Of a stretch of 64,000 bases of DNA, positions 10,754 through 35,322 are shown piece after piece. This stretch comes from Candidatus Margulisiibacteriota bacterium (lineage in GTDB: Bacteria; Margulisbacteria; WOR-1; O2-12-FULL-45-9; XYB2-FULL-48-7): the NCBI GenBank assembly GCA_041661965.1, contig JBAZTH010000001.1, positions 291,221 through 355,220 of the forward strand, written 5' to 3'. A program made the position numbers and the translations under genes. Numbering within the stretch: position 1 is the stretch's first letter; every line of letters starts with the position of its first letter. The notes under the pieces were generated by a model. The model saw only the letters and a list, made by a program, of their open reading frames with translations, made no database searches and was not told where the DNA came from.

Positions 10754-10787
10754 TTGTTTGGTAATTGTTTCTTGGTAATTGGTTATT
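10754..10787 (+). promoter_or_regulatory. Copy D of the repeated leader element
   Basis: TTGTTTGGTAATTGTTTCTTGGTAATTGGTTATT, then AAAAAAGGGAG and the ATG at 10809. Confidence 0.6.
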
Positions 10788-10808
10788 TAAAAAAGGGAGT
10801 TGGTAAAA

Positions 10809-18052: not shown

Positions 18053-18691
18053 ATGAAGAGAATAATTGTTGGACTTGTTATGTTTTTAGGTTTTGTTGGA
18101 GTTGCTTTCGCGGGGCCATTTTCAGGTGTTGGCGGTGACGCCGACTATTTTCCTAAAAATGGACCGATCGGTTCTTTTTTTCTGGTCCCAATGTTAAATC
18201 TTGAAAGCACCTCTGCCAGCTCTATTTATGGGCTTGAGGGGGTAATTGGTTGGAGCGATCTTTCATTCTCCATTAAATATGGAAAACAAGGCGATTCCAA
18301 CTTTACTGGCTTGGGAATAAGAAAAAAGATATTAGGTGAAGATAATATGCCATTTTCTTGTGCTTTAATTTATGATGTAGATGGAATTTTAGCGCAAAAT
18401 AGTAGTGTTAATGGTTCGTATCTTGGTGCGATTTTTAGTAAAAAAATTGATAACTTATTCCCTTATATTGCGATCCTTTCAACTACTTATTACACCTCGG
18501 CTAACGTTGGTGGGACAACTGTTTGGAATTATATTTATGGAACTGGGTTAGCTGGTGGGGTGCGTTATGACTACAGTGATAACTGGGCAATTAAGGGGGA
18601 GCTTAATTATAATATCCTCTCGACTACGGCATCGATGCCGTCGCCAAAATCAGTTATGAGTCTAATTGTAGCCGCAAGCTTTAGAAGATAA
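18053..18691 (+). CDS. Secreted β-strand-rich protein (possible small outer-membrane β-barrel), 212 aa
   Basis: Signal peptide MKRIIVGLVMFLGFVGVAFA. Alternating hydrophobic pattern. Strong RBS GGGAGGAAAAAAG upstream of the ATG. Confidence 0.5.
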   Translation: MKRIIVGLVMFLGFVGVAFAGPFSGVGGDADYFPKNGPIGSFFLVPMLNLESTSASSIYGLEGVIGWSDLSFSIKYGKQGDSNFTGLGIRKKILGEDNMPFSCALIYDVDGILAQNSSVNGSYLGAIFSKKIDNLFPYIAILSTTYYTSANVGGTTVWNYIYGTGLAGGVRYDYSDNWAIKGELNYNILSTTASMPSPKSVMSLIVAASFRR

Positions 18692-18761
18692 TATTTTGAA
18701 GGCCAGATTGTAATTTGAGATGGCTCAATTGCTTAAAGCAATGAAAGGGAACGATAATTTG

Positions 18762-19664
18762 ATGACAAAAATATTTAGTAAAGGATTGCTTTTGACGGCG
18801 ATATTGATTGGGGGTGTGCTTTTTGGGGGAATGGCGATGGGAGGATGTGGAAGCTCATTAAGTTCAAGTACGAGAAGTGTTTACTGTTTTCCTGATTGGA
18901 CACCTGATGGGAAGATCCTTTGTGTAAAAGCTAAGGTTTCTACTTCTACGGGTGCGGGGTCGAATCCAAGTGTTGATTCCAGCGCGGAATATTTTATAAC
19001 AATTATGGATATCAATGGAAGTAATGAGGCGGATTTGAGGCGAATTAACTCTTATGGAGTTGCTGTTATGTCGCCATTAGGGAATTATATCGCTTATTCT
19101 GAAGGATCGAAAATAAAAGTTATAAAAGCAAATGGGGATGATTTGCATACTATTGGTCTTAATGATGGGTTTGAAGTAATTGGTCTTGATTGGGGTTCCG
19201 ATGAATCAAGTATTATTTATTATGCGGGGAAATCGCCGAATTTTGAACAAGCTGTTGTCGGCATTGATGGAGCAGGTAAGGCAATTATTTCAACAAACGG
19301 CGGATCGATTGCTTGGAGATATGGAGACAGGATTGTTATGCAAAAGCCGATTTCAACGGAAGTCAATAGAGTTGTTGCCATTGATAGGAGAACTTTAAAT
19401 GAAATATCATCTTACCCTAATGTTGTTGGAGGCAATTTCAACGTTAACAGAACAAGCACAAACGAGGTAGTGTTTTTTGGGGAAAAAATAGAAAAGTTTG
19501 ATTTAACCGCGCCAAGTATGCCCCCTGTGGTGATAATAAACAGAAGCGATATTTATGATATTAAACTATCTCCCGATGGTCAGAAAATTGTTGGAGATAA
19601 TGTTAACAAAATCGGTATTTATTTAATAAATATAGATGGCACGGGGTTTGAACAATTGAGATGA
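18762..19664 (+). CDS. Lipoprotein with PD40/TolB-like β-propeller repeats
   Basis: Lipobox AMGGC. Repeats FPDWTPDGKILCV and IKLSPDGQKIVGD. Stop overlaps the start of the giant gene (ATGA). Confidence 0.6.
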   Translation: MTKIFSKGLLLTAILIGGVLFGGMAMGGCGSSLSSSTRSVYCFPDWTPDGKILCVKAKVSTSTGAGSNPSVDSSAEYFITIMDINGSNEADLRRINSYGVAVMSPLGNYIAYSEGSKIKVIKANGDDLHTIGLNDGFEVIGLDWGSDESSIIYYAGKSPNFEQAVVGIDGAGKAIISTNGGSIAWRYGDRIVMQKPISTEVNRVVAIDRRTLNEISSYPNVVGGNFNVNRTSTNEVVFFGEKIEKFDLTAPSMPPVVIINRSDIYDIKLSPDGQKIVGDNVNKIGIYLINIDGTGFEQLR

Positions 19665-22600
19665 AAAAGCTTCTGTTAATGGTTTTTTTCTGTGTATTAA
19701 CTTTAGTGCAAGCTGCAATCTCTGACGATGCGGCTTGGATAAATCTTAATAGTAGAACAGAAGGGACCGCTACATATAAGGATTATCTTTTTATCCTTGT
19801 CCATGGCATTAATGGAAGTAGCCAACATTTTAATGGCCAGGATGATCGAGATAAGGGTTTGCGGCTTTTGCAGCAGTTGCGAGACGACCTTCATTTGGAC
19901 GGGCATATCTTTGCCTATTCATTCAGCGAGAAAAGCGGAAGCAACTTTACCAGAGTGCGCGAGTTTGCGGATAGGACTTATAATAACTCAGCTTCATATG
20001 TTGATGAGAATGGCAAGCCTGTTTCTATGGGTGGAAAATGTTGGTTGGACAAAGCAAGAGAGGATTATAAGAGATGGTATGCACGAACCCACCCCGAATA
20101 TTCAAGAGATGAAAATAAGTGGGAATCTGTTCCCGATTCAATTGTTCCCAAAAAATATATTATCCTCACTCACTCGATGGGAAACATGGCGGCAAGATTA
20201 TATATTTACTCAAAAGATTTATTGGGCGAGGATTTGTATAAGAATGACGTCGCGAAAGTTGTGTACATCGCTCCGCCATTTACGGGCAGTGATTTGGCAT
20301 ATTTAGGGATGGTGCCGCAGGGCATATTTTGGGATCTTCAATTGTGGTCTAAAGCCAATGAATATAATGTTCTGTGGGAAGCGTTGTTGAAAAACCCGAC
20401 TAATTTTGCCCTTGATCCCCGAAAGACCTACAAGATCGCCAAGGAATATGCTTATTGGACGTTGAATGGGCCAGTCATGCTGGATAATGTGACTGCTCAA
20501 ATTGGAATTAAAGGAGCTAGCTTTCAATTAAATATTAATGAGCTAATTCATACGGAAGAGAGACCAGGTGGTGCGTCATTAGTTAAAGGGTCGGGAGCTT
20601 GTTATCAGGATCCAGGATTATACGAATTAATGCCGGAGATGATGATGGGGGTCTTTTTCCCAAAACTCCTTGACGCGAAACTGGCTGACGATGGCAACGA
20701 ACCCCTCTATAGTGTGGTCTACGGACAGGGGTCCCCGCTACCTAATGTAAGAGATTCGGCAATTGGGGGGATCGTTACGCAGGGGATAAAATATTCTTTG
20801 AGTGATGTTAACCGCTCGAACCTGATTGCCGGTGTCAAAAATCTTTCCGGGACGATAACAACTACTCCTGGTGAGTGGGGAAAGGTCTTTGGCGCAGGAA
20901 AAAATGTATTTGATGAGATTTCCGACTCCGCAGAGAATGGGAAATTAAGCTTTTATAATGGGTTTATGGGTGAGCTGTTGACTGTATTTGGCTCGGGGAA
21001 TTTTGCTAAATTACCAACCGAACAGGCGAAATTCTTGGCCTTAATCCAAAGCAATCCGGCTTTTGTCTTTTCCGATGATGGGGATAGCGCGGTGCCGGTT
21101 GATAGCGCAAAGGGGCTATATCAGGGGAAATCAACACGGGCCTTGCGAAACGCCAACTTTTATCCCGTTTTACTTAAAAGTGGATTTGATGATTATTTGA
21201 AAACGCAATTCCCAGGTCAATTTGAAGTGGTTGTCGCGGCCTATTACTTAAGCACGCAATTTGTTCCGGAGCCCGCGAAGACACCGATTGCAATTGGTTG
21301 CCAATATGGGCTGTTATTGTCTTTTATGGAAAGGGTAAATGCTTTTACGCCTGAACTGCAGGCCACAACTTGGTCGCATACTAATACCATGTTAAGACAG
21401 TACGATGTAATCGAAAAAGCAATTTTAGATACAGAAGCTATTTTTACTGTTAATGATTTGCAAACGACTGCTACTAATGACGCTAACACTTTAGAGGCGA
21501 AAACGGTTAAAGTTTTTACCACAAGCGTAGTGGTGCCGAGCGGTTACCACTCTGTTCAAGTTAAAAGCGCGGTAGAAAACCGAAATCCAACCGGACTGAC
21601 TAATCTGCCGATTCCAATGACTCTCGATGGCCAACGAATGTATGTAACGCAGATGACTGTGACTAAGCCGCCAAAGCGAATCGCTGGGAAGCTTAATTAC
21701 CTCATTCCCAGGTTGATGAAACAATTCGAATATTCATTTAATTTTGCCGCCTGGAAGCCGATAACTGGTGTCGACCAAGAAACGGGAGAATTTGAATTAG
21801 ATGATCTGCCCTTTGCCGAAGGGCAAAATATACTTGCTATCCGTTCCGAGAACGGGGTTGGGATTAAATCCCACCAACTCCTTAAGATCATCCTCAATAC
21901 CATTCCGATGCAGCCGAGCCAGTTTAAGCCTCTGCCGGAATATTACGTTGCCACTGCCAATCCCGAGATCTCGGTTGAGTTCAATAAATCGGAATATACC
22001 GGGGATTACGATTCGGAGAAAATTACGATCAAAGGGATGACCTTTGACGGAGAAGAAGTAGCCCCGCAGGTTGAATCGAGCATGGAAGCCTACCACCCCT
22101 GGGCTAAAGCAAGTTATAAAGCCAATGGCTTAAGTGATGGGGAGCATAATGTTGCCGTCAGAGCGGAATCAAATGTCGGGGTTGCCCAGGGGCTCTGGAC
22201 ATTTTATGTCGATACTACCGCTCCGACGATCTCGATCGAACCCTTAGCCCCATATAGCCCGCGCGGACCAACGACGATTCGCTATACCGTTTCCGATGAA
22301 GTTTCTCCCAACCTCCGCTTTGTCCGCTGTGATCTCTACGATAAGAATGATACCCTGGTAACTACCATTGCGACCGCTGACTCTCTCTCTAAAGGCGAAA
22401 ACTATTTTACTCTTGATCCTCGATCCCTTGATGTCTCTCTTCTCGATGGCAGTTACAAAATTAAGATTAAAGCTTTTGATCTGGCCGGTAACGTTGCCGT
22501 TGCCGAAACGCCGTTAATTATTGACGCTACGCCGCCAAAGGTTGGGCCAGTCGCTTTGACCCCAAACCCCATGACCTCAAATACCAACGAATTAAAAATG

Positions 22601-25600
22601 AACGCCGAAGTTAGTGAGAAAGCGTTAGTCGTAATCAAACTTAATAACTTATCGAATAAGACGACCACAGCGTATTTGGCTCAAGCGGGAACCTCTTCCT
22701 CAACACTTACAACTTATAGCTTTCTTGCTTCTTATGCCTGGCCCTATAACAATTCTTTTGCTCCTGGGCCTGAAGATGGGATCTATCGGGTCGAAGTGAT
22801 TGCTCGTGACGAGGCCGGGAACGAAAGTGCGCCCCGTACCCTTGAAGCGGTCCGGATCGATCGTACTCCGCCAACCATTTTGGGGCAGATCGCTAATCCA
22901 TATGTTCTTACCAATATTGGCGCTAATGCTTATAAAACGACACTGACGTACAATTTAAGGGAGAATGGATTGGGAGATAAGGGGGAGGGGGTAGGGGTTA
23001 AAGTTAAGATATTTAATGCTAGTACTGGCCTGCTGGCCGATGCCTATGAAGAGGCTCCGGCATCGTTAACAGAAGAAAATAAGATCGTTTGGCATTCTGT
23101 TTCTGATCTACCGAAAGGAGCCTATAAATTCCAAATCACCGCGACCGATGATGTCGGTAATACCGCGACCGCGTATTCTTCCTGTGTCAAAGACGGGATC
23201 GCCCCTAGCCTCTCTTTCCCGGCGGAAGATGGGGCTGAAATTTCCGGGTTGGTCGCTATCCGCGGCACCGCCATGGACCCCGACTGGTCAAACGATAAAC
23301 CGTTCAAGCAGTACCGGGTTTATTTAGCCAGGGGCGATAAGTCAAAAATGGAAGCCGCGACGATCTTGTCGCAGGCTTCCGAGCTTGTTTTTTCCGCCAT
23401 CGAAGTTCCCTTGATCAATAGAGGCGGCGGCGCCTCAAACATCTCTCTCCGGCCATTGCAGAATGATGCCACTCTGGCTTATCTCAATACCAATGGGCTG
23501 GAAAATGGTGACTATACCATCCTAGTTGTAGTTGATGAAGAAAACGGCGACTCTTTAGCGGTCACACGACTAATAAAGGTTAATAATGGTTCATTTCGCG
23601 CATCAGCCATGACTGCTCCTTATGTTAAGCTCAAGCCGCTGGCTTCTACTGTAGACTTTAAAGCCGACGATTCGGTAAAACTTCAGATCGGCTTCATTAA
23701 TAGCGTCAAGTCGGCCAATGTCTATGTGGAGATTCTCAAATCGCAGGACGAAAAGCTTGTTTATTTTAAATATTTCCCCAATATTCTTGGCGCCCCCTTT
23801 ATCGGAAAACCTGATTATAAGGCGGGGACCGACCTTGGTTATTTTATCTGGAGCGACGAATCTGGCTACCATATTCGCTGGTCGGCCGATGGTTCAAGTC
23901 ATAAGTTCAGCGGTAATTTGATCGCGATGGGAGGAACAGTTAACATAACTGGTGGCAACTCTTCTGTTTCCAGTGGGAGCATGATCAGTTGGAATAAGAC
24001 ACTTTCCGGTGGTGAAGGAGGCTTCGATTTTACCGCTGATGGCGGCCAGCTGATGATCACCCCCAAGCTTGATGAGGACCCAAGTTCCCCTTCGATCTAC
24101 GCTGATAATGTTTACCTTGGGATAACCAAACAAACCCAGCAATACCTGCCGTTGGTGATTGATGTCGCCGGCCAGCGACTGGTTAGCCTTGCTGGAATGG
24201 GGCAGACTTCTTCTTCGATTGCTGGTCAGCCTCCTTCCGGGATTGACTGGGATGGTCGTTTGGATACAGGAGCTTATGTTGATAACGGGAGCTACATTGT
24301 CAAAGTGATTGCCGAAGGGGTGGATGGACAGGGACTGGCCTCTGCCGAAGCGGTGGTTAATGTGACCACGCCGTTTGAATTGAAGATTAAAGAGGCGACC
24401 AATAAAGAGTTTAGTTCTCTTTCAGTTCCTGACCGGGTTTCCATTTTTTACAATGTTTCCAAAGATGCTCTTATAACCGCGCAGGTTCAGAAAGAGAATG
24501 GCGATTTTGTTGCCAGCTTGGCCGCCGGGAAAGAGAGCCTAGGGACTCTCCCAACTAATCCCCTTTCCTTGGTTTGGACCGGGAATTATCCCGATAACGA
24601 CTCGACCCAGGTAGTGACCGGCGGCACTTATAAACTTATTCTGACTGCCGCTGCGAAAGACGGGTCCGGAAACCGCACCGAAACGATTAGTGGAATTAAA
24701 GTTGTCTCTTTTGCCAGAAATGAAGCCTTGGTTAAACTTGAACCGATTGGCGAGGAGGTTGATTATAACGATGGACTTGGCTTGAAAAAGATCCGTTTAG
24801 CAGACGGAGAATCACCGTTATATTTTGAAGCTAAGGGTTATGGCAATTACCATCCAGTAAAAGATCTTACATATACTCTGTCCGCTCAAGGGAAGCAAAA
24901 GCTGACCGCTTATCCGTATGTGTCGTTCGCCGGCCTGATGCATCGAGGGTTTAATGAAGTTGATACGAAAATAAAAGTTATATTCAAGATTCATGCTTGG
25001 AATCATTATTTGGGGGCTGAAGATTATTGGGCATTAGGTAGGTTTTGGAATCCTATGAAGTGGCGAAGGGAAACCAAGGAATGGGTTGAGGAAAAATGGA
25101 TTGCTGTTGATAGCCTTCCTAGTGGGGCTGGAGTAGGGACCGTTTTTAAAGTAGGGGATCAGGTAAAAAATTATACATTCAATTTTGACAGTTATAATTG
25201 GTGGCCCCAAAATGAAAATGATCATTATTACAATAAAGATAAATTTGGTTGCGGGATCGACGCTGTTGATGTCCAGGTTGAAGTCTACACAAAAAATTCA
25301 GGATTTATCTTGGATAAAAATGTTGATTGGCTTCTTGTAAGTCAAGAAAAGCCAACTAGCAAAGGCATATTTAGAACGGCCTATAGCGGAAGCAATGGAG
25401 AATCTCATTATGGAACCTTAGTGTCTGGCGGAAATCGATATGATAAAACATACGGCACTTATCAGGTAAATTTAACCATTAAACTTGAGGCTCCTATTGC
25501 CTATTCCCGCCTGACCAACCGTTTTGTCCCTTGGTTTGGGTTTGTCAGGGCCAATGAAGCGAAACAAAAAGATTTTTCGGAGTATTTAACCGACATCAAT

Positions 25601-28600
25601 CGTGGCTTAGGTTTTCCAGGGAAATTGTTTTTTGATGATCCTAGTGCCAAGCCTGATGTCGCTTATAAACCGAAAACCGAGATCGAAGCGGAATTGGCAG
25701 GGTTAACTTGGGAAAAACGAAGCCAAAAATTAAAAGAAATGAGCGAACAAGCCAATCTGCTTGGCTACAAAGACGCACTTGCTTCTTCAGTCGGTTATGA
25801 TAGCTATCTTTCTGACGGATACTATGAATTTGTCCCGATTACTTATCCGGATCAGGCGAATATAAGCAAATCCGGCTTTGATTATACCAATGATTCGAGC
25901 TTAGTTAAGGTCCACACCGATCTTACCTATCACGGGGACGGCAACCCCCAATCGCCTTTTGAATTCAGTTGGCCGTGGCGGGAGAGTGAATATACAGCCT
26001 TTCTGGCCACTCAGGAAACGCAGCGAAAAAGATTGGACAAGGATTACGGCGGTGAACCTCAGAATTATACTGCGCCAACGATTGATGGGACATTCTGGAC
26101 GCTTGATCCATCACAAGTCAACCAACGGAAAATCGACCAAAATAATAGCAAGGTTTCCGGCGGCCAGATTCATTACAACAAAGCGACCAGAAGAGGGGAA
26201 TGGAGCTCAACCCAGAACCCGGTAACTAGCCGGAGCGTCGATCAGATTATGCCTTTGCCCAGCTATGTTTACGATAAATCCTTCAAAGTCGAAAGCAATA
26301 CTCCAGGGATCAAGCTTATGCTCTCTTCTTCAGCTCTCAGCGCGGTAGTTAAGGCCGAAGATCAGGATATCAACGGCTTTCCTTGGACGACCGCAGATGA
26401 TACCAATCTGGCCGCTAACCGCGGCTACGTCAAGAGCCCTGCGCTGATCTTGAATCCCGATGCTTTTCGGTCCAAGCGGTTGATTAAACTTTCTTCCGCT
26501 TACCAGATTGTTGATGATTATAAATCGACTGGAGCGGCAAGATTCACTTTCCTGAAAAAACACCCGTGGGAACCGGACAACCAGGATAGCCCGGTCGATA
26601 ACCCCAATCTTGAGATCGACCGCTGGGAAGTCATAGTTAAAGATAAAAGCGGCGCGGTCAATAAAGATGTCGCCCTCGAAAATGTTACGACTGGCGCAAA
26701 GCGGTTAGACGATGCCCTTTCTCTTAAGCTGAAAATTGACGCTTCAGAAGCCCGTTATGTCGAGATTAAAGGTTCGGCTCCCGGCCCGTACGAACTCCTC
26801 TATTATGATGGTAAGAGCTGGCAGTCGATCACCCAATCGTTTGATGAGACTCCGACCAGCGGGCGCCTCGCCTGGTGGAACGTCTCTCGCTTGAACGGCG
26901 AATACACGGTTATGCTCCGTGCCGGCAGTTACATTTCAACTCAAAACGTTTCGATCGGGACCCTGATCAAAAAAGACGATGGGGGAGACGCCTGGAGCAC
27001 ATATAAACGGGCCCAGCTGAAATTCCCGCCCCATGCTTTTGGCAACCGTGATCAGCTGGCGACGGTCACTCCGGTGACCATGAAAGAGATCAAGCTCCGT
27101 AACAAGCCGATCATCCTAACCTCCGGGCCGATCGTTGAGATCAAGCCTTCCTGGAAATTTACGGTTAGCTCCCTCGAAGGGGTTGATCTGCGGCCGACTC
27201 TCCGTTTCGTTTACACTTTTGACGAATTGAAAGAACTGGGGGCTTGGAATGGCGAAGGAGAGCCTAAAAACCTCCCCTGGAACATCCATCAAGTGACCGA
27301 AGCGGGAGACCTGCAGATCGTTTCCGATAACCAGCAGACGATCGAAGAAAATAACGGTGAAAAGCATTACGTTTTCTACGCCGCGCTTGACCATTTTTCA
27401 ACTTACGCGCTTCTGCCTGGTAAATTTAAACTTTCCGCGCCGATCGTTCTGGCTGATCGTTATATTACCAATAAAAATAGCGTCACTATTTATGGTACGG
27501 CGGAACCGGGTTCGGTTTTAGGTCTTAAGGTTTCGAAAGAGCCAATCTCGGACACTTCAAAAATTAATAGCCTTGATGAGATAACGGCTGACGAGAAAGG
27601 GAATTTCCGGATTGAAAATGTTCCTCTGATTCAAGAAGGAGCCAGCTACATTTATGTGACCGCGCACCCTCAAGGGAATTCAGAGATCTTAACTTGCGGC
27701 GACGTTATGGTAACGAAAGACACAATCCCGCCAACGGTTGGCATTGCTCCAAATCTTTACGCCTTTTCGCCTAACGGCGACGGCAAATATGACAGTGTCG
27801 ATTACCTTTTGACGATGAATGAAAAAGGGAAGATATACTTAGGAGTTAAGAGCGATTCGAACGACCTAATCAATATTGACGCGCCGCTTTTGGCTGGAAA
27901 AGAGCTCAAGGTCAATTGGTCGAAAGAAGGCTTTAAACTATATCGTCGGGATAACGCGACCGGCCTTTGGACTCTTTATTCCCAGGTCCCGAATCCTTCT
28001 AATCCAATAGACGGAGGATATTCTGTGGTTGGTTACGCGATCGATGAGGCGGGGAATATTTCCGATAACATCATGGTTAAAACTATAATTGATCTCACCC
28101 CGCCAAAGGTTTTGGGCTTAACCGCCGATCCCAATCCATTCACCCCCAATGACGATGGGGTAAAGGATGCAACTAGTTTCTGGTATAAGTTTAGCGAGCC
28201 GGTGACGGTAAGCCTGGGGATATACCGCGAAGATGGCGGTCTCTTTAAGAATACTGAAGGGGAAACGGAGAAGTTTACTTATCCAACAACAGATAGGAAC
28301 CGCGACGTTCAGTCGCAGGTTCCGTCGGTTGGGCAGTGGTCCTGGGATGGCCGGGGGAATCGCAATGAACTCCTTGGCGGAAACTATTCATATTTTATTT
28401 ACGCGGAAGATTGGGTTGGCAATACTGTTTCATCGGAGGTCAAACAGATCGTTGTTGATCGGGCGCCGACCCTTATCCCGTACGTTTTTTTCGAGCCCGA
28501 TCCATTTTCCTCGGCAAAGGGGACGATCATTAAATACTATCTTGCCCAGGACGACTTGAAAGTTACTGCGGCGATTGTTGGGGAAAGGGGCAAGGTTATT

Positions 28601-31600
28601 AAAAACCTGCTCAATGAGTCTGTTCAGGGGAAGGGCGAACATCAGCTGTTCTGGAGTGGCGATCTTGATGGCGCCAGCAAAGCGGTTGATGGCTCATACA
28701 CCATTAAGATAAAAGCGGTTGGTGACGGCTTGTCGGCGGAAGCGACTAATACTGTGCGGATCGATAACACCAGCCCAACGGTGATTCTCCAACCACTGCA
28801 AATCGACTATACCAGCAAACAAGGAACAATAATCTTTTCGATCCCGGAAGAGGCCAAAGTCGATGTTTCAGTCGTTAAGGCTGATGGTAGTATCGTTGTT
28901 TTAATGTCCAGCGAAGCTAATGCGGCCGGAGAACACCAATTGTCATTTAGTGCGGCAATAGTTGGCAGCGATGGGCAAGTAATGGTTTCAGCGGTTGACC
29001 GGGCGCAAAACGAAGCGGCCGCGACGGTCCCATTCTCTTTCCTGCCGCCGAAACTGCAGATCACCGATCACCTGGCCGATCCGGCGATCTTTACCCCCAA
29101 CGGCGACGGTCATACCGATACCACCCGGATTGCCTATAAGCTTAGCGGTGGCAGGGCTCCTTACATAGTTAACGTGAACATTGCTAACTCCTCCGGGACC
29201 AGTGTAAAGCGCTTGGCGGATAATGACGAGCAATCCGCCGGTAGCAATTCATTCTATTGGGATGGGAAATCAACGGTCCTTTCATCCGTTGAAACGTATG
29301 TTTCCGACGGCGATTATCAATACCAGGTTTCTGCGGTTGATGCTGATGGTGTTAAGCAGGAGGTTGCTGGCAAGCTCGAAGTCGCGGGAGGGAAGATCAC
29401 TTCCAACTTCAATTTGAGTGCCCAGTCGTTTTCTCCTAATGGCGATGGGGTTAATGAAACTCTGGGGATAACTTATTCAATCAATTACCCGCCGTTTTAT
29501 AACGTGCCGGGAGAGCCCCAGGTCCTACTAGCGATCCTGGCGGCGAATGGTGACCTTCTCTATCAAACCGGTTTAGAGCGCGCTCCCGGTACCTATACGT
29601 ATGTTTTTGACGGGAAGAGTAATTTTGACGCGCCGGGCTTGCCTATCGGTTCATCTTTAACAACCGGTAAATATTACGCCCGGATCACTATTCAAGACTC
29701 GCTGGGGACGGTTACTTCGTTGACCAAAGACTTTGCGGTTGACGTCACCAACCCGGAAGTTGTTATCTCCAGCGAGGCGGGGATGATCGCCAATCCGTCA
29801 AGCTTTTCGACCAATGCTAATCCAGATGGGAGCGACCGGCCGCGCAGCACAACTCTATATTACAAGCTGACCGAAGATACACTGGTTTCGGTCAAAGTCT
29901 ATAAGATTGACGGCAAGAAAGATTACCAGCGAACTGACTTCACGGCTGACAATCTAATTGCTACGCTGGTTAATGGCCAGTGGCAGAGTGGTGGCCAGCA
30001 GTACCAGGTTAATTGGGACGGAAAGATGGCTAGCGGAGTTTATGCCGATCCCGGTAAATACGCTTTCATTGTCGAAGGAGCAGATACCTTGGGAAATACT
30101 ACCCTCCGGAAGTGGGGCGGAACGGTCTGGATCCAGAACAATGTTTTGACTCTCCGTACTCCAGAACAGCTTGAACTGGCGACACTTGCGGTGACCAACA
30201 ATCCCGATCCCCGCGCCATCTCGCCGAACGGCAACAGTCAAGAGCTGGCCCAAAAACGGGCTCGTTTCTACTTTATGATTGATCTTTCGTTGGCACCGGC
30301 GACGGTTGAAGCGGCGGAGCGGATCGAGGCGATGGGGGTAACCGTTAATACCAAACCAGTTGGCAAGTATTCCGTGAAGGTTTATAGCGACAGTGCTATG
30401 GCTAACCTGGTTCGGACTATTACACCTGACGCTGTTGCTCAATCGGGGACACTCTCCTGGGAAGATTGGGACGGGAAAGCTGATGGCGGCGCCTACTCTC
30501 CAAATGGCAATTACTGGCTGGCGGTTGAGCTTCAGGATTATGCGGGGAATAAGCAACCACTGCTGATCGGCCAGGTAACTGTTGATAACACTTTGCCCGA
30601 GGTTAAGAATGTTTTGGCTGCTCCATATTTCTTTGCTCCGGGCGGGACGAATTCGAGCCTTAAAACGACCACTTGTAGCTATGAGGTTGCCGATAATTCC
30701 GGCAAAGTTAAAGTTGTGATTGGAGCTTATAGTGGGAGTGCGTTGGTAAAAACTTTAACGGCTGATGCCTGGCAGGTAAATGGTAATTATTCGATTGATT
30801 GGGATGGGTCCAGCGTGACCGGCTATGTTGGCAGTGCCAATGGAAGCGGCTTTATTGATGGAGAATATACCTTGAAAATTATGGCCTATGATGAGGCCGG
30901 CAATAGTTCGGTTCTCCAGTCGGCAAATGTAAAAGTTGATACTTTGCCTCCCGATGGAGTAGTCGTTATTGGCAGCGGGAATCCGCAATTTACTAGTTCG
31001 CCAACTGTTGAGCTGTTTGCTTCTGCTAGTGAGCCAACTTCCGGGGTCAATAAAATGAGCTTTAGCAACGACGGCGCAAGCTGGTCCTCCTGGGAAGATT
31101 ATTCAACGCTGGGTAAGGCCTGGCTCCTTCCCGCTGTGGATGGGACCAAAACGGTGCGGGTAAGATTAATGGATAACGCTGGGAACTATTCGACCGCTGT
31201 TTTTGCCGATCAGATTGTCTTAGATTCTGCCGCGCCGGTTATTAAGTCGGTAGTCCAGCCTCAACCGGTTACTATCAATAGCCCTACAACCAGTTTGCTT
31301 GGGGGCATGGCTGATTTCAATGGCGGAGCCGATACAATTTCCGGCATAAACAATTGGCAGATAAAGATCGTGAATTCCGGCGGCAGTGTTGTTAAAACCT
31401 TTGGCGCGACGGTTACTCCCGCGCAAACCGGTGATCTTGTTATTAATCAGGAATGGGTGCCGACAGGACTTGATGGTTATTATTACTATTATTTTACCGC
31501 GACCGACGCGGCCGGCAATGCTTTTGATTCCAGAAAAACCGGCTATGGCGCTTATAAGCCACTAGGTGGGAACGATACTTATTATCGGGTCTTTGTTGAT

Positions 31601-33364
31601 AAAACCCCTCCAGCGGTCGATATAACTAGCCCGACGCCAAGCCAATGGTATAAAGGGACAATAAATATCAGCGGCAGTGCCTCTGACAGCAATCCCGGAC
31701 CTTACAAGCTTGAATACGCCATTGCCAATACCAATAATTGGACTTTGATTTCCAATGGGAATTGTCCAGTCAGCGGGGTCTTGGCAGCCTGGAACACGAC
31801 TGCTTTAAACGGTGATTATGATTTAAGGTTGTCCGCGACCGATGAAGTTGGCAATTACGCGGAGAAGAAGATAACCATTAGGCTTGATAATACTCAACCG
31901 GTTATTACGATTATTCCGGTTTCACCGATCACCTTTAACCCTTATGTCGACGGCAGCGGCAGAATTGATTTTACCGCGACCGATCCGGCGCCAAGCGGTG
32001 GTTTTTCGATTGGGAACATTTCTTCGGTGGTTAGATATAACGGACAGATTGTGAAATATCTGCCTATTTACAGTAGTGGCGGCAACAGTTATTACGTCTT
32101 GTGGGATGGGACCAATATTAGTGGTGATTACGAAAATGAAGGGAGTTATTCGATCGAGATCGGCGCTGTAGATGTGGTTGGCAATAACGCGGCAACGGCT
32201 AGCCTCGGCATAAATTTGCAAGACAATCAACGACTGCTTTACAACCTTAATAATACCGAATTAACAGGTTTTGATATTGTACAGATTGATATAGTTTTGC
32301 AATGGCAGCAAGGGCCTTCATATTACGAGAAAAATTGTGGCAAAGAGTATCAAATTAATCTTCCTAATGCGCCAGTTCAGCCAAGGACGGTAGCAAGATC
32401 GAAATATACTAATTATGCGGTTGGAAATTACCAACATGTTGTTTCTGTAACAAATGGGAATGTTTATTATAAAAGAATCATTGGCAACGATACATATGGC
32501 CCAATAAAAGTGTATAGTGGTGGGAACGCGATCTCTGCCGCTATCTGTGCTGAAAACACGAATGACTCATATATTGCTTGGTTAATTAATGTTGGACAAT
32601 TTTATGAAATCTATTTCCAGAAAATCCCGGTTAATTTTGCCCCCAGTACTGGAACGAAATTAGGAGCAAGCGCGATTAAAAAAGGAATAATGGCGATTGC
32701 GACCCTCGAATCTCCATCCCTCCTTGCGCCCGCTAAAGATCGCCAGGATGTCCAAAACATCCGCCCTGCGTTTGAATGGCAACACCATAAGGCGGATACC
32801 ACCGAATATCGGGTCGAGGTTGCGAAGAACGATAGCTTTACGATCGACCACCAGACTTTCAGCAAAGCGGCCGGGACAGGGACACAAGATAAGTCTGATA
32901 GTAATCTCTACGCCTTTAACTACGCCATCCATGAGTTTGATCCTGGCTTAGAGCGGAATACCGACTACTTCTGGAAGGTTACGGCACTTTCTCCAACCAA
33001 TTCGGCGACCTCGGAGACCTGGGGCTTCCGTATCCAACCGGAGCTGACCTTGGTAGGGGTGACCAATTATCCAAACCCATTCAATCCGAACCGGGAGCAG
33101 ACCAAGATCCGCTACCGGCTCTCGGCTGACGCCGATGAAGTGCGGATTAGGATTTACGATATAACCGGTTCTTTGGTGACCGAACTTGACGGAACGACCA
33201 ATGGCGAAGGGATGAGCGTCTGGCAGAAGTATAACGATGTTTCCTGGGATGGGCGGAATGGGCGAGGGGATCTGGTCGTCAACGGGATCTATCCGTTCGA
33301 AATCATGGCGCGGATAGGTGATAAGACCGTGAGCGGGAGAGGGAAAATAGCGGTGCTCAAATGA
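19661..33364 (+). CDS. Giant (4,567 aa) secreted surface protein: signal peptide, N-terminal α/β-hydrolase (lipase/PGAP1-like) domain, many Ig-like and FlgD-Ig-like repeats, and a C-terminal T9SS/FlgD-Ig-type sorting domain
   Basis: Signal peptide MKKLLLMVFFCVLTLVQA; lipase nucleophile elbow ILTHSMGNMAARLY. Repeated F(S/T)PNGDGxxD modules (about nt 27775, 28145, 29095, 29435, 30225). C-terminal …NYPNPFNPNREQTKIRYRL…VRIRIYDITGSLVTEL…SWDGRNGRGDLVVNGIYPFEIMARIGDKTVSGRGKIAVLK is the classic Por-secretion-tail/FlgD_ig pattern. Uninterrupted 13.7-kb ORF. Confidence 0.8.
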   Translation: MKKLLLMVFFCVLTLVQAAISDDAAWINLNSRTEGTATYKDYLFILVHGINGSSQHFNGQDDRDKGLRLLQQLRDDLHLDGHIFAYSFSEKSGSNFTRVREFADRTYNNSASYVDENGKPVSMGGKCWLDKAREDYKRWYARTHPEYSRDENKWESVPDSIVPKKYIILTHSMGNMAARLYIYSKDLLGEDLYKNDVAKVVYIAPPFTGSDLAYLGMVPQGIFWDLQLWSKANEYNVLWEALLKNPTNFALDPRKTYKIAKEYAYWTLNGPVMLDNVTAQIGIKGASFQLNINELIHTEERPGGASLVKGSGACYQDPGLYELMPEMMMGVFFPKLLDAKLADDGNEPLYSVVYGQGSPLPNVRDSAIGGIVTQGIKYSLSDVNRSNLIAGVKNLSGTITTTPGEWGKVFGAGKNVFDEISDSAENGKLSFYNGFMGELLTVFGSGNFAKLPTEQAKFLALIQSNPAFVFSDDGDSAVPVDSAKGLYQGKSTRALRNANFYPVLLKSGFDDYLKTQFPGQFEVVVAAYYLSTQFVPEPAKTPIAIGCQYGLLLSFMERVNAFTPELQATTWSHTNTMLRQYDVIEKAILDTEAIFTVNDLQTTATNDANTLEAKTVKVFTTSVVVPSGYHSVQVKSAVENRNPTGLTNLPIPMTLDGQRMYVTQMTVTKPPKRIAGKLNYLIPRLMKQFEYSFNFAAWKPITGVDQETGEFELDDLPFAEGQNILAIRSENGVGIKSHQLLKIILNTIPMQPSQFKPLPEYYVATANPEISVEFNKSEYTGDYDSEKITIKGMTFDGEEVAPQVESSMEAYHPWAKASYKANGLSDGEHNVAVRAESNVGVAQGLWTFYVDTTAPTISIEPLAPYSPRGPTTIRYTVSDEVSPNLRFVRCDLYDKNDTLVTTIATADSLSKGENYFTLDPRSLDVSLLDGSYKIKIKAFDLAGNVAVAETPLIIDATPPKVGPVALTPNPMTSNTNELKMNAEVSEKALVVIKLNNLSNKTTTAYLAQAGTSSSTLTTYSFLASYAWPYNNSFAPGPEDGIYRVEVIARDEAGNESAPRTLEAVRIDRTPPTILGQIANPYVLTNIGANAYKTTLTYNLRENGLGDKGEGVGVKVKIFNASTGLLADAYEEAPASLTEENKIVWHSVSDLPKGAYKFQITATDDVGNTATAYSSCVKDGIAPSLSFPAEDGAEISGLVAIRGTAMDPDWSNDKPFKQYRVYLARGDKSKMEAATILSQASELVFSAIEVPLINRGGGASNISLRPLQNDATLAYLNTNGLENGDYTILVVVDEENGDSLAVTRLIKVNNGSFRASAMTAPYVKLKPLASTVDFKADDSVKLQIGFINSVKSANVYVEILKSQDEKLVYFKYFPNILGAPFIGKPDYKAGTDLGYFIWSDESGYHIRWSADGSSHKFSGNLIAMGGTVNITGGNSSVSSGSMISWNKTLSGGEGGFDFTADGGQLMITPKLDEDPSSPSIYADNVYLGITKQTQQYLPLVIDVAGQRLVSLAGMGQTSSSIAGQPPSGIDWDGRLDTGAYVDNGSYIVKVIAEGVDGQGLASAEAVVNVTTPFELKIKEATNKEFSSLSVPDRVSIFYNVSKDALITAQVQKENGDFVASLAAGKESLGTLPTNPLSLVWTGNYPDNDSTQVVTGGTYKLILTAAAKDGSGNRTETISGIKVVSFARNEALVKLEPIGEEVDYNDGLGLKKIRLADGESPLYFEAKGYGNYHPVKDLTYTLSAQGKQKLTAYPYVSFAGLMHRGFNEVDTKIKVIFKIHAWNHYLGAEDYWALGRFWNPMKWRRETKEWVEEKWIAVDSLPSGAGVGTVFKVGDQVKNYTFNFDSYNWWPQNENDHYYNKDKFGCGIDAVDVQVEVYTKNSGFILDKNVDWLLVSQEKPTSKGIFRTAYSGSNGESHYGTLVSGGNRYDKTYGTYQVNLTIKLEAPIAYSRLTNRFVPWFGFVRANEAKQKDFSEYLTDINRGLGFPGKLFFDDPSAKPDVAYKPKTEIEAELAGLTWEKRSQKLKEMSEQANLLGYKDALASSVGYDSYLSDGYYEFVPITYPDQANISKSGFDYTNDSSLVKVHTDLTYHGDGNPQSPFEFSWPWRESEYTAFLATQETQRKRLDKDYGGEPQNYTAPTIDGTFWTLDPSQVNQRKIDQNNSKVSGGQIHYNKATRRGEWSSTQNPVTSRSVDQIMPLPSYVYDKSFKVESNTPGIKLMLSSSALSAVVKAEDQDINGFPWTTADDTNLAANRGYVKSPALILNPDAFRSKRLIKLSSAYQIVDDYKSTGAARFTFLKKHPWEPDNQDSPVDNPNLEIDRWEVIVKDKSGAVNKDVALENVTTGAKRLDDALSLKLKIDASEARYVEIKGSAPGPYELLYYDGKSWQSITQSFDETPTSGRLAWWNVSRLNGEYTVMLRAGSYISTQNVSIGTLIKKDDGGDAWSTYKRAQLKFPPHAFGNRDQLATVTPVTMKEIKLRNKPIILTSGPIVEIKPSWKFTVSSLEGVDLRPTLRFVYTFDELKELGAWNGEGEPKNLPWNIHQVTEAGDLQIVSDNQQTIEENNGEKHYVFYAALDHFSTYALLPGKFKLSAPIVLADRYITNKNSVTIYGTAEPGSVLGLKVSKEPISDTSKINSLDEITADEKGNFRIENVPLIQEGASYIYVTAHPQGNSEILTCGDVMVTKDTIPPTVGIAPNLYAFSPNGDGKYDSVDYLLTMNEKGKIYLGVKSDSNDLINIDAPLLAGKELKVNWSKEGFKLYRRDNATGLWTLYSQVPNPSNPIDGGYSVVGYAIDEAGNISDNIMVKTIIDLTPPKVLGLTADPNPFTPNDDGVKDATSFWYKFSEPVTVSLGIYREDGGLFKNTEGETEKFTYPTTDRNRDVQSQVPSVGQWSWDGRGNRNELLGGNYSYFIYAEDWVGNTVSSEVKQIVVDRAPTLIPYVFFEPDPFSSAKGTIIKYYLAQDDLKVTAAIVGERGKVIKNLLNESVQGKGEHQLFWSGDLDGASKAVDGSYTIKIKAVGDGLSAEATNTVRIDNTSPTVILQPLQIDYTSKQGTIIFSIPEEAKVDVSVVKADGSIVVLMSSEANAAGEHQLSFSAAIVGSDGQVMVSAVDRAQNEAAATVPFSFLPPKLQITDHLADPAIFTPNGDGHTDTTRIAYKLSGGRAPYIVNVNIANSSGTSVKRLADNDEQSAGSNSFYWDGKSTVLSSVETYVSDGDYQYQVSAVDADGVKQEVAGKLEVAGGKITSNFNLSAQSFSPNGDGVNETLGITYSINYPPFYNVPGEPQVLLAILAANGDLLYQTGLERAPGTYTYVFDGKSNFDAPGLPIGSSLTTGKYYARITIQDSLGTVTSLTKDFAVDVTNPEVVISSEAGMIANPSSFSTNANPDGSDRPRSTTLYYKLTEDTLVSVKVYKIDGKKDYQRTDFTADNLIATLVNGQWQSGGQQYQVNWDGKMASGVYADPGKYAFIVEGADTLGNTTLRKWGGTVWIQNNVLTLRTPEQLELATLAVTNNPDPRAISPNGNSQELAQKRARFYFMIDLSLAPATVEAAERIEAMGVTVNTKPVGKYSVKVYSDSAMANLVRTITPDAVAQSGTLSWEDWDGKADGGAYSPNGNYWLAVELQDYAGNKQPLLIGQVTVDNTLPEVKNVLAAPYFFAPGGTNSSLKTTTCSYEVADNSGKVKVVIGAYSGSALVKTLTADAWQVNGNYSIDWDGSSVTGYVGSANGSGFIDGEYTLKIMAYDEAGNSSVLQSANVKVDTLPPDGVVVIGSGNPQFTSSPTVELFASASEPTSGVNKMSFSNDGASWSSWEDYSTLGKAWLLPAVDGTKTVRVRLMDNAGNYSTAVFADQIVLDSAAPVIKSVVQPQPVTINSPTTSLLGGMADFNGGADTISGINNWQIKIVNSGGSVVKTFGATVTPAQTGDLVINQEWVPTGLDGYYYYYFTATDAAGNAFDSRKTGYGAYKPLGGNDTYYRVFVDKTPPAVDITSPTPSQWYKGTINISGSASDSNPGPYKLEYAIANTNNWTLISNGNCPVSGVLAAWNTTALNGDYDLRLSATDEVGNYAEKKITIRLDNTQPVITIIPVSPITFNPYVDGSGRIDFTATDPAPSGGFSIGNISSVVRYNGQIVKYLPIYSSGGNSYYVLWDGTNISGDYENEGSYSIEIGAVDVVGNNAATASLGINLQDNQRLLYNLNNTELTGFDIVQIDIVLQWQQGPSYYEKNCGKEYQINLPNAPVQPRTVARSKYTNYAVGNYQHVVSVTNGNVYYKRIIGNDTYGPIKVYSGGNAISAAICAENTNDSYIAWLINVGQFYEIYFQKIPVNFAPSTGTKLGASAIKKGIMAIATLESPSLLAPAKDRQDVQNIRPAFEWQHHKADTTEYRVEVAKNDSFTIDHQTFSKAAGTGTQDKSDSNLYAFNYAIHEFDPGLERNTDYFWKVTALSPTNSATSETWGFRIQPELTLVGVTNYPNPFNPNREQTKIRYRLSADADEVRIRIYDITGSLVTELDGTTNGEGMSVWQKYNDVSWDGRNGRGDLVVNGIYPFEIMARIGDKTVSGRGKIAVLK

Positions 33365-33462
33365 ATTGCCAAGATACATGCCGCAATAACCAAGGTACAA
33401 GATACAATGACCAATCAATAACCAATAATCAAATTTCAATCTCTAAACTATTTTCTTGGTTA

Positions 33463-34377
33463 TTGAGATTTAGAATTTGTTTGGTTATTGTTTCTTGGTT
33501 ATTGATTATTACATCCGCTAATGCGATTGGTCAATCTGGTGCCGACATCGCCGTCCTCAATGCCGGTGTCGGCGCTCGTCCGCTGGCCATGGGGGGCGCT
33601 TTCACTGCGGTTGCCGATAATGCCGACGCCCCATATTGGAATCCTGCTGGTTTGGGTTTTATTAGTAGCCAGGAGATAACCAGCAGTCAAACCAGACTTT
33701 CGACCGACGCCGATCATTATTACCTAAGTTACGTGACTCCGGCTCTGGGTGGAACGATCGGTCTTTCCTGGATTCAGGTTGGGCTGGGAAATATCGCCCA
33801 GACCTCTAGCGAGGTTGATATTCACAATGAAGTTCAGAATATTAGCTTGTTCAGCTACTTTTCTAGCGCCTACCTTCTTTCCTACGGAAAAAAACTGAAC
33901 GACCATATTGCCTTTGGTCTAACTGCCAAGTATCTAAGTTCCGAGATGTTTGGGATCAGTGGTGGGAGCGGCTGGGGCTACTCATTAACCCCCGGGATAA
34001 TGCTCCGCCTTGACCCTTGTCACTTGACCCTTGGTCTCAAGATCGACGAACTGATCAATACCCAGCAGTGGGGGACCGGGACGGTCGAAAACGTTCCGCC
34101 CAAGGCGCGGCTGGGCTTGAGCTGGCTTCCTTGGTCCGAAAGCCGGGTGGCGGTTGATATCAGCCAAACTGTTAAATCAGGTTATTCTCCGGAGGTTGTG
34201 ACCGGCTTTGAGTGGGCGCAAGGGGGAATTGCTTATCGAGCCGGATATAATTCCAGCGGCCTGACCGCTGGCGTTGGCTTTACCGTTGGCCACGCCAGGC
34301 TCGATTATGGCTATGTTCAAGACGCAAATTTTTCCTCGAACAATGTTCACCGGATCTCTTTAAGCGGGATTTGGTAA
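33463..34377 (+). CDS. Outer-membrane β-barrel of the PorV/FadL-like family. Start uncertain: TTG at 33463 gives a clean signal peptide, with the alternative an ATG at 33361.
   Basis: Mature N-terminus IGQSGADIAVLNAGVGARPLAMGGAFTAVADNADAPYWNPAGLGF matches the FadL/PorV N-terminal signature. Predicted cleavage after …LLIITSANA. Lies directly downstream of the T9SS-CTD cargo gene. Confidence 0.5.
   Translation: MRFRICLVIVSWLLIITSANAIGQSGADIAVLNAGVGARPLAMGGAFTAVADNADAPYWNPAGLGFISSQEITSSQTRLSTDADHYYLSYVTPALGGTIGLSWIQVGLGNIAQTSSEVDIHNEVQNISLFSYFSSAYLLSYGKKLNDHIAFGLTAKYLSSEMFGISGGSGWGYSLTPGIMLRLDPCHLTLGLKIDELINTQQWGTGTVENVPPKARLGLSWLPWSESRVAVDISQTVKSGYSPEVVTGFEWAQGGIAYRAGYNSSGLTAGVGFTVGHARLDYGYVQDANFSSNNVHRISLSGIW
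33477..33510 (+). promoter_or_regulatory. Copy E of the repeated leader element (here apparently overlapping the signal-peptide codons of the PorV-like gene)
   Basis: TTGTTTGGTTATTGTTTCTTGGTTATTGATTATT preceded by ggttattgagatttagaa, as in copy A. Confidence 0.5.
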
Positions 34378-35053: not shown

Positions 35054-35202
35054 CATCCATAGGTCTTGATATAATATCGGCGCGAATTTTCCTTTTCTGT
35101 TGCCATTTATTGCACTTCCTTCTTCTAAATTCAGCTTGTTGAACGGGGAATAAAAAAAAGGGACAATTCGGGACGCGGCGGCGGCGCTTTTTGCGGCATT
35201 TA
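35054..35202 (-). repeat. Left arm of a perfect ~149-bp inverted repeat (inverted copy of the miaB upstream region plus its first 18 codons)
   Basis: The reverse complement of 35054–35202 is identical to 36988–37136. Reading outward from this arm gives MATEKENSRRYYIKTYGW followed by an early stop. Confidence 0.85.
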
Positions 35203-35322
35203 TTGTACGGCCTGCCCGCGGCTCGCTTTTTACTCCTGCTCATCCTTTGGCTCGCCGCACTGCAGGCCTCATTCAGAATTGTATTGACAACAACTGTAAA
35301 CACAATTAAACTATTATTGCGT

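Follow-up and report, generated by a model that had tools for sequence, protein, structure and literature searches.

Organization of the locus

The stretch analysed here, called the window throughout, comprises 64,000 nucleotides (nt) of contig JBAZTH010000001.1 (assembly GCA_041661965.1, positions 291,221 to 355,220) from a Candidatus Margulisiibacteriota bacterium, and the subject of this report is a pair of genes within it that encode a giant exported protein and a small outer-membrane barrel. The pair lies in a region (18053-34377) with four open reading frames (ORFs), all on the plus strand: ORF1 (18053-18691, 212 amino acids, aa), which has a GGGAGG ribosome-binding site, and then, as read from translation, ORF2 (18720-19664, 314 aa), the gene for the giant protein (19661-33364, 4,567 aa) and the barrel gene (33361-34377, 338 aa). 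ORF2 overlaps the giant gene by 4 nt (19661-19664), and the giant gene overlaps the barrel gene to the same extent (33361-33364), whereas ORF1 and ORF2 do not overlap and are separated by a 28-nt gap. An earlier note, made from the sequence alone, had described four co-oriented genes coupled by overlaps; all four ORFs, and every sequence string that it quoted, were located in the window, and the coupling holds for two of the three junctions, the ORF1/ORF2 junction being the exception. The existence of the giant-protein locus is confirmed. Over the 11.5 kb and 8.1 kb fetched, two public metagenome contigs (ENA sample ERZ27249449) match the window without a difference.

A C-terminal domain related to those of PorU and PorZ

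The giant protein begins with a Sec signal peptide, MKKLLLMVFFCVLTLVQA, and ends in a module of 232 residues (4336-4567; 32666-33361, plus strand) that stands out by its conservation and that consists of an Ig/Fn3-like (immunoglobulin/fibronectin-like) domain followed by a sorting domain. This C-terminal sorting domain (CTD) proper occupies 33041-33361 on the plus strand, at the extreme C-terminus of the protein; it runs from PNPFNP to GRGKIAVLK, reads PNPFNP...IRIYDITGSLV...WDGRNGRGDLVVNGIYPF, and is, by its profile scores, type-A-like on a FlgD-Ig fold.

The last ~100 residues pass the Pfam family FlgD_ig (PF13860) with 39.1 bits against a cut-off of 27. For this domain FlgD_ig is a fold label only: there is no flagellar context, and the genuine FlgD in the PDB is matched by a profile of the C-terminal module at E = 0.39. 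The only significant match of that profile among PDB sequences is the CTD of Porphyromonas gingivalis PorU (6za2_A residues 1027-1150, E = 0.0047). The best matches among NCBIfam models point the same way, with the CTD aligning to positions 970-1094 of the PorU model at E = 5.8e-11, and to the CTD regions of the models for the M6-like inactivated metalloprotease (M6i; E = 1.2e-9) and PorZ (E = 1.8e-5). The earlier note had allowed that the domain might turn out to be a generic FlgD-Ig fold and nothing else; because the PorU CTD is found at E = 0.0047 and FlgD at E = 0.39, this is not the case, the CTDs of PorU and PorZ being closer than FlgD. Judged from these profile matches, the CTD is homologous to those of proven type IX secretion system (T9SS) proteins, namely PorU, PorZ and M6i. 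The model for the type B CTD, TIGR04131, gives 15.1 bits, below its cut-off of 35, and the CHU_C-like matches elsewhere in the giant belong to internal domains of its stalk.

A barrel of the PorV/PorQ family

The last ORF of the region (33361-34377, plus strand) contains the FadL/PorV N-terminal signature GARPLAMGGAFTAVADNADAPYWNPAGL and passes NF033709, the model of the PorV/PorQ family, with 100.5 bits against a cut-off of 90 and an alignment that spans model positions 5-323 of 326. An AlphaFold2 (AF2) model built with 36 homologues is a FadL-type outer-membrane barrel with a predicted local distance difference test score (pLDDT) of 73.6. When this model was searched with Foldseek, rank 1 went to Flavobacterium johnsoniae PorV (8gl6_F; E = 1.6e-10, template-modelling score, TM, 0.70), taken from a translocon with a bound substrate CTD; the next fold matches in the PDB were TodX/FadL, and 6h3i_F came at rank 6. 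Neither the model nor the fold matches contain a POTRA-like or periplasmic domain. The FadL/PorV-like barrel that had been proposed from the letters alone is thus upheld at the level of the family and of the closest structure.

At least 500 close homologues of the barrel exist, many of which have precomputed matches to PF03687, and the phylum-level names that they carry are Margulisiibacteriota, WOR-1 and Saganbacteria, save for two that are probably mis-binned (Patescibacteria and Hadarchaeum). PF03687 is the family of Treponema pallidum UPF0164, with which, as with FadL and TodX, the barrel shares the 14-stranded fold and the N-terminal hatch. Unlike these, the window-type barrel is accompanied in the genome by a CTD protein and not by genes of lipid metabolism, and PorV is structurally closer to it.

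The start of the barrel gene may differ from that of our ORF. An in-frame insertion rich in TTGGTTATTG/CAATAACCAA repeats (33365-33462, plus strand) is apparent in the alignment of junctions, where 102 nt separate the ATGA overlap from the signal peptide of the barrel at this locus only, and the barrel gene may therefore start at TTG 33463 instead of ATG 33361. In four other loci (L003, L005, L008 and L010; loci are labelled L with a number) the ATGA overlap is the plain start of the barrel. The NCBI protein that is 100% identical to the last ORF is a shorter product of 298 aa, annotated as 'PorV/PorQ family protein' of a Candidatus Margulisiibacteriota bacterium and encoded on a 614-kb contig. 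The TTGGTTATTG/CAATAACCAA repeats also occur in the intergenic region 10432-10796 and may represent a small repeat element or an array of binding sites.

Giant and barrel genes form a conserved unit

In all seven distinct loci of Margulisiibacteriota and Saganbacteria that were examined first, a barrel gene overlaps the stop codon of a CTD gene encoding 2,400-5,000 aa; among them are one more copy from the same metagenome (with M23 peptidase and NHL domains), two in a complete WOR-1 genome, and copies from Saganbacteria and others. When the C-terminal module was used to scan a single genome from each species, 19 loci of the Margulisiibacteriota type (L018-L036) were obtained. A barrel ORF was detected by model in 14 of them, the N-terminus of a barrel could be recognised by eye in two more (L032 and L036), and in the remaining three the contig stops at the match. 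The ATGA start/stop overlap is present in every locus from Margulisiibacteriota or Saganbacteria with enough downstream sequence. Such adjacency is far beyond chance and is not coincidental. The conserved unit consists of two genes, the giant and its PorV-like barrel, and not of the four-gene operon that the earlier note had envisaged, since ORF1 and ORF2 are missing from the other giant loci.

Conservation is concentrated at the end of the giant that adjoins the barrel. The last 232 aa are 85-95% identical among closely related WOR-1-type genomes, against 21-37% for the rest of the paralogues. The module of the window is 88-91% identical to those of L003, L005 and L008, and 62-68% identical to those of L010 and L012; in the scan of one genome per species, the full module was confined to Margulisiibacteriota, WOR-1 and Saganbacteria, plus one contig that is probably mis-binned. 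At the other end the giants vary, the head being a PGAP1-like hydrolase in the window and an M23 peptidase, NHL or FG-GAP domains elsewhere. A WOR-1 protein of 4,366 aa is the orthologue of the window's giant, with 69.5% identity over residues 1190-4567.

The genomic positions of the cassettes also vary. A comparison of L005 and L008 (WOR-1, MEUD01000001.1) with the window (19661-43872) showed that the slot upstream of the genes for the serine recombinase, the radical SAM (S-adenosylmethionine) protein and the SLH protein, and of those that follow through to nusG, holds another giant in WOR-1, one of 3,221 aa with FG-GAP/NHL domains, and that WOR-1 has its orthologue of the hydrolase-headed giant at a different site, beside cobW-rnf. 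Related genomes thus have different cassettes in their slots, and recombination in the 3' module and the barrel gene, which are nearly identical between copies, may be the cause.

Possible roles: a dedicated anchoring pair or a type IX secretion system

Both members of the pair have their closest characterised relatives in the T9SS, and several features of that system bear on how the pair could work. The CTD of PorU remains bound to PorV and that of PorZ to PorQ, and it has been proposed that cognate PorV-like barrels protect a CTD from cleavage (PMC10202324). Solved structures show PorV loops wrapped around the CTD, which touches both SprA and PorV (PMC10994853). A barrel encoded by a neighbouring gene anchors type B cargo, the giant adhesin SprB for instance, and is required by it (PMC9143113, PMC12618676).

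From the observed pairing, family assignments and pattern of conservation, we infer docking, surface exposure and enzymatic activity along the following lines. The giant would be exported by Sec, as its signal peptide suggests, and its invariant C-terminal module would then be recognised by, and stay docked on, the barrel encoded by the translationally coupled downstream gene. Each cargo would have a barrel of its own, serving it as a dedicated anchor in the outer membrane or as a cognate shuttle, much as in PorV-PorU, PorQ-PorZ and SprF-SprB. A stalk of ~4,000 residues with Ig-like domains would hold the PGAP1-like esterase/lipase head away from the cell, where it could act on lipids of particles or of the envelopes of other cells, and paralogous cassettes would present an M23 peptidase or NHL/FG-GAP propellers in its stead. 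That this is a dedicated CTD-barrel anchoring pair, a two-gene cassette for surface display, is a reading by analogy that we consider about evenly poised between right and wrong. The earlier note had seen a cargo and its shuttle in the two genes: the link that it drew is real and conserved, and what fits less well is the general PorV shuttle, because one barrel per cargo, encoded in cis, is better matched by a dedicated anchor or cognate partner than by a single shuttle serving all substrates.

Several observations weigh against a dedicated anchoring pair. The CTD falls short of the curated thresholds of both type-A models, with 20.9 bits for TIGR04183 (cut-off 23; E = 2.7e-4) and 22.1 bits for Por_Secre_tail PF18962 (cut-off 27; E = 1.8e-4), and it aligns to the N-terminal half of each model only; the T9SS/FlgD-type sorting domain of the earlier note is accordingly sound with respect to homology with the PorU and PorZ CTDs, but not as a member of the curated type-A families. 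The barrel likewise scores far below the equivalog models, with 29.2 bits for PorV (NF033710, cut-off 250), 40.3 bits for PorQ (NF033711, cut-off 220) and 72.9 bits for PorV2 (NF052325, cut-off 325), and a profile of the barrel family has no match among the PDB sequences, PorV included. In addition, the CTDs within one genome are more alike (90-95%) than are their partner barrels (65-85%), which argues against strict one-to-one specificity and hints at an additional, shared component that recognises the CTD, for example a translocon. A 14-stranded barrel alone cannot explain the export of a 500-kDa protein, which might cross the outer membrane through a T9SS-like translocon with genes elsewhere in the genome or by some other route. 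Finally, the evidence is entirely metagenome-assembled sequence, from which binding, localisation and activity are proposed.

A first alternative is a classical T9SS. On this account the genome would encode the full system (SprA/Sov, PorK/L/M/N and PorU), the giant would be a type-A substrate, and the barrel would be a PorV, taking over the giant at the translocon and delivering it to the sortase complex for cleavage of the CTD and anchoring to lipid or lipopolysaccharide (LPS). The homology of both CTD and barrel to T9SS parts speaks for it, as do the conservation of the CTD above that of the barrels, which suggests a shared partner such as the translocon, and the contacts of the CTD with both SprA and PorV in the solved complex (PMC10994853). 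The taxonomic position of the host does not: Candidatus Margulisiibacteriota is placed in the Cyanobacteriota/Melainabacteria group of Bacillati and not in the Fibrobacterota-Chlorobiota-Bacteroidota (FCB) group, whereas reviews limit the T9SS to Bacteroidota or the FCB group (PMC10994853, PMC7463736, PMC12398890). With such a host, the presence of a canonical T9SS is not to be taken for granted. A search of the literature for Margulisbacteria together with T9SS, type IX secretion or PorV found nothing, and there was no T9SS-specific Pfam family among the genes listed in the flanks (up to 10 kb) of the Margulisiibacteriota-type loci, which is a small sample. Moreover, there is one barrel per cargo, with several copies per genome, in place of the usual single general PorV, and the score of the barrel (29 bits) is remote from the PorV equivalog cut-off of 250. 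We therefore regard a classical T9SS as unlikely, although more probable than the other alternatives discussed below that assign the barrel a different role.

Compared with the PorU-PorV and PorZ-PorQ pairs of P. gingivalis, the dedicated anchoring pair that we favour would have in common a surface protein that keeps an uncleaved CTD bound to a PorV-family barrel (PMC10202324); the CTD of the window matches that of PorU best, and its barrel belongs to the PorV/PorQ family. It differs in that its cargo is a hydrolase-tipped fibre of 4,567 aa rather than a sortase or PorZ, in that its barrel fails both the PorV and the PorQ equivalog, in the presence of several pairs per genome, and in its non-FCB host, from whose group no T9SS core has been described. 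The SprB-SprF pair of F. johnsoniae offers the closest precedent in scale, SprB being an adhesin of 6,497 aa that is held by SprF in Bacteroidota. There too a giant surface adhesin is encoded beside a cognate barrel that is needed for its secretion and C-terminal anchoring (PMC9143113, PMC12618676), but the CTD of the window is not type B, and its barrel is of the PorV/PorQ kind, with no match to PorP/SprF seen. The likeness to SprB-SprF is one of design, an analogy and not membership in the same system.

Cognate CTD-barrel pairs are known already; what is new is their occurrence in this phylum and on this scale, which has not been described previously. T9SS-type CTDs and PorV-family barrels have been regarded as typical of Bacteroidota and the FCB group, and they are found here as strictly paired cassettes in multiple copies in a sister phylum of the cyanobacteria, and in other non-FCB phyla. 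This raises the question of whether CTD-barrel anchoring or export can operate without SprA and PorKLMN, and of how the attachment complex of the T9SS originated. Very large genes are frequent in Margulisbacteria, and giant proteins have been tied to envelope-degrading functions (West-Roberts et al., 10.1101/2023.11.21.568195). The hydrolase or M23 peptidase heads of the window-type giants resemble the proteins of that preprint, which does not mention PorV, T9SS or FlgD-type CTDs, and the pair described here offers a possible display route for many of the very large genes of the phylum. It suggests long fibres tipped with lipid- or cell-wall-degrading enzymes, with a bearing on attachment, competition and epibiotic lifestyles in the phylum.

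The pair in other phyla

The CTD proper is 35-50% identical to the C-termini of proteins from Krumholzibacteriota, Latescibacterota, Eisenbacteria, Zixibacteria and Fibrobacteraceae, and it is similarly close to C-termini from Elusimicrobia, Firestonebacteria and Goldbacteria. In roughly 50 of 61 loci from these eight groups, the CTD gene is followed within a few bases of its stop codon by the start of a PorV-family ORF, and in some of the remainder the contig ends too soon. These barrels, too, pass the PorV/PorQ family model, with PorQ second best, and their partners are proteins of ~1,000-1,150 aa in which Big_1, Kelch or DUF11 domains precede the CTD. The gene order and a size of ~1,050 aa would fit a porU-porV operon, an identification that we rejected: the PorU, PorZ and M6i models match the CTD only, and the bodies of the proteins are Big_1, Kelch or DUF11.

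Latescibacterota is assigned to the FCB group in the taxonomy and Krumholzibacteriota is unplaced at NCBI; we take Eisenbacteria, Zixibacteria and Fibrobacteraceae to belong with the FCB group. Elusimicrobia, Firestonebacteria and Goldbacteria are outside it. The Elusimicrobia locus L041 encodes a Kelch-propeller protein carrying a FlgD-type CTD, and ~0.4 kb downstream of it a barrel of the PorV/PorQ family. In the Firestonebacteria locus L037 the order is reversed, with the barrel ~1.3 kb upstream of the CTD protein, which is again a Kelch propeller; the Goldbacteria loci L067 and L073 have a DUF11-repeat CTD protein, with no barrel detected in either. The combination of Kelch domains and a CTD recalls PorZ, which has two propellers and a CTD bound to PorQ. 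On present sequence comparisons, the locus in the window is the Margulisbacterial version, with giant cargo and multiple copies, of a widespread two-gene design.

Two further known families invite comparison. The CTD of the window matches the last ~90 positions of NF052323, the M6-like inactivated metalloprotease (36.8 bits; equivalog cut-off 600), as do the ~1,050-aa partners from the FCB group in the same CTD region, and the second-best model for the window's barrel is NF052325, or PorV2 (72.9 bits; equivalog cut-off 325). From their names and adjacent accessions, we would guess that NF052323 and NF052325 form a gene pair. The body of the window's giant is unrelated to NF052323.

The breadth of this distribution bears on a further alternative, in which the pair would be a self-contained export system: the barrel, perhaps together with the β-barrel assembly machinery (BAM), would be the exit through the outer membrane, in the manner of two-partner secretion and with no need of a T9SS core. 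A strict one-to-one pairing with translational coupling, and the occurrence of the pair in several non-FCB phyla, would be expected of such a system, and secretion of type B cargo in the T9SS does require the cognate barrel (PMC12618676). Nevertheless, plugged 14-stranded barrels of the FadL/PorV type are too narrow for folded Ig domains and are not known to conduct proteins; the barrel has no POTRA-like or periplasmic domain; and a source of energy is not evident. We consider export by the pair itself improbable, more so than a classical T9SS.

A broader proposition concerns the origin of the module rather than the exit route. The CTD and its PorV-family barrel could be an autonomous and ancient display module that works without the T9SS core in Margulisiibacteriota, and possibly in Elusimicrobia, Firestonebacteria and Goldbacteria. 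We rate this as doubtful, if somewhat less so than a classical T9SS in this host. Were it true, a simpler and much more widespread system would be the ancestor, or else a cousin, of PorU-PorV and PorZ-PorQ, and Margulisbacteria would show giant enzyme-tipped fibres to other cells by means of interchangeable cassettes.

The hydrolase head and the stalk

The N-terminal part of the giant (residues ~36-600; 19766-21460, plus strand) is, by its motifs, its AF2 model and profile searches, a PGAP1-like/DUF676-type alpha/beta serine hydrolase. The nucleophile elbow THSMGN lies at residues 170-175, with Ser172 as the nucleophile, and there is a VHG oxyanion motif as well as DGD (473-475) and HTN (near residue 573). 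Even distant relatives keep Ser172 of HSMG and the VHG motif with little or no variation, whereas DGD and HTN, the candidates for the acid/His pair, are conserved among the close family only, and both lie in parts of the model with low confidence. The head by itself remains below the Pfam cut-offs (PGAP1, 13.1 vs 24.3; DUF676, 14.1 vs 20.3; Abhydrolase_6, 16.2 vs 26.3), and a direct sequence search of the PDB returned only nanobody noise. Exhaustive searching with a profile brought up 157 relatives (E <= 1e-3), many of which are the N-termini of other proteins of 2,000-7,800 aa; when 53 of the relatives were scanned, PGAP1 was matched in 30 (best E = 5e-13), Palm_thioest in 27, DUF676 in 15 and LCAT in six.

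The structure prediction that the earlier note had called for is poor overall (pLDDT 53.6), with a confident core at residues 40-205 (pLDDT 75-89) whose top PDB fold matches are lipases and cutinases, all of them weak (E about 7e-3). Of the lipase head proposed in that note, the alpha/beta serine hydrolase stands, and the word lipase applies only at the PGAP1-like/DUF676 level; going by its relatives, specificity as a lipase is plausible and unproven. Stand-alone heads of 741-838 aa also occur; the regions concerned are L014 1743-6230, L015 10001-12472 and from 20659 onward, and L017 10001-12226. One of these heads follows an ORF2-like beta-propeller gene, and another locus has a stand-alone head together with a giant of 5,108 aa bearing the same kind of head.

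A hydrolase of the lipid-esterase type beside a barrel with the FadL/TodX fold and an N-terminal hatch motif (a weak FadL/Toluene_X match in Pfam, E = 0.009) invites a metabolic interpretation, in which the barrel would take up fatty acids freed by the head, in the manner of FadL, and the CTD would be one more Ig domain of the stalk. Yet the same barrel follows giants with M23 peptidase, NHL, FG-GAP, Kelch or DUF11 heads, it is the CTD and not the head that is conserved beside the barrel, and the closest structure is PorV, not FadL. We give metabolic coupling hardly any credence.

Between the head and the C-terminal module, Pfam scans in segments delineate a first Ig-like array (22208-23770, plus strand) with Big_13, Big_3_3, Big_3_2 and Y_Y_Y-like domains, and a second (27887-32665, plus strand) with FlgD_ig, CHU_C-like, Big_13, Big_3_2, Big_7 and OmpL47-type domains. 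The central ~1,370 residues that separate them (residues ~1372-2742; 23774-27886, plus strand) contain almost no recognisable domain: three segments of 457 aa gave one weak FlgD_ig match, and no PDB sequence was matched. This centre is nonetheless kept at about 70% identity in the WOR-1 orthologue. FSPNGDG-type motifs, counted with the pattern [FIL][ST]PN[GDN][DN][GS], number five (residues 2702, 2827, 3144, 3257 and 3520), and there are four significant Pfam FlgD_ig stretches, the C-terminal one included, so that an earlier count of more than five FlgD-Ig modules was slightly generous.

ORF1 and ORF2

The two genes upstream of the giant were considered as members of a conserved cassette and rejected, for neither is found upstream of other giants, and database relatives number three for ORF2 and none for ORF1. 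ORF1 has a Sec signal peptide and its sequence resembles a small beta-barrel outer-membrane protein, with weak Pfam hints only (Opacity, E = 0.02; OMP_b-brl, E = 0.3). No homologue of ORF1 was present in any other locus, in a search whose query was a concatenation of ORF1 and ORF2 that possibly lowered the sensitivity for ORF1.

ORF2 is probably a lipoprotein with a beta-propeller-like body, judging by a lipobox-like …AMGGC read near its N-terminus and by one homologue with faint beta-propeller Pfam matches. It had been labelled a PD40 lipoprotein, a name that its Pfam scores do not sustain, those for PD40 (E = 0.12) and WD40 (E = 0.2) not being significant. In L014, a relative of ORF2 directly precedes the stand-alone 838-aa homologue of the hydrolase head, and by this arrangement ORF2 is linked to the head and not to the cargo-barrel pair. 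Because of this position, one may speculate that ORF2 works in the service of the hydrolase, as a helper or an inhibitor for example.

Genomic surroundings

The G+C content is 39-50% in the left part of the window (1-38000) and 50-57% in the right part (38000-64000). The right part is ordinary core genome, with genes for tRNA-Trp, nusG, rpoB/C, fusA and ribosomal proteins. The left 38 kb, in which mobile or defence genes are located, resembles a genomic island and encodes a Poly_export protein, an MmeI-type restriction-modification enzyme (2441-5125), a helicase, T5orf172 and HTH_17 proteins, and a 7TM-GAF (seven-transmembrane, GAF-domain) histidine kinase with a response regulator. Directly upstream of ORF1, three tandem tyrosine recombinase genes (14739-17940; 306, 297 and 464 aa) follow one another with 4-nt overlaps, a layout that we take to be a 'recombinase in trio' (RIT) element. 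Small genes for four-helix-bundle proteins of the 23S_rRNA_IVP/bAvd type are situated near giants in other Margulisiibacteriota loci (L003, 16579-16932; L015, 19390-19761; L017, 1577-1960; L032, after 6118), with no reverse transcriptase in the flanks of these four.

Downstream of the cassette, a segment of 2.08 kb (35054-37136) contains a helix-turn-helix (HTH) gene and a large serine recombinase gene between perfect 148-nt inverted repeats (35054-35201 and 36989-37136), the right arm taking in both the recombinase gene's 3' end and ~17 codons from the start of the MiaB-like radical SAM gene. The same design occurs at the same place in WOR-1 (L008, 11586-13607) with perfect arms of 163 nt, and the arms of the two genomes are 77% alike. 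From its sequence, the segment has the appearance of a conserved invertible switch. A search of public contigs gave no inverted junction, both contigs with the left junction having the assembled orientation; one metagenome contig begins exactly at 36989.

Further to the right, a gene for an SLH-domain protein of 506 aa (40052-41572) adjoins one for a CarboxypepD_reg/Big_5 protein. The SLH protein presumably indicates an outer membrane tethered by SLH domains in the style of OmpM, as in other diderm relatives of the cyanobacteria. An envelope of the OmpM style differs from that of the Bacteroidota, in which the T9SS is studied.

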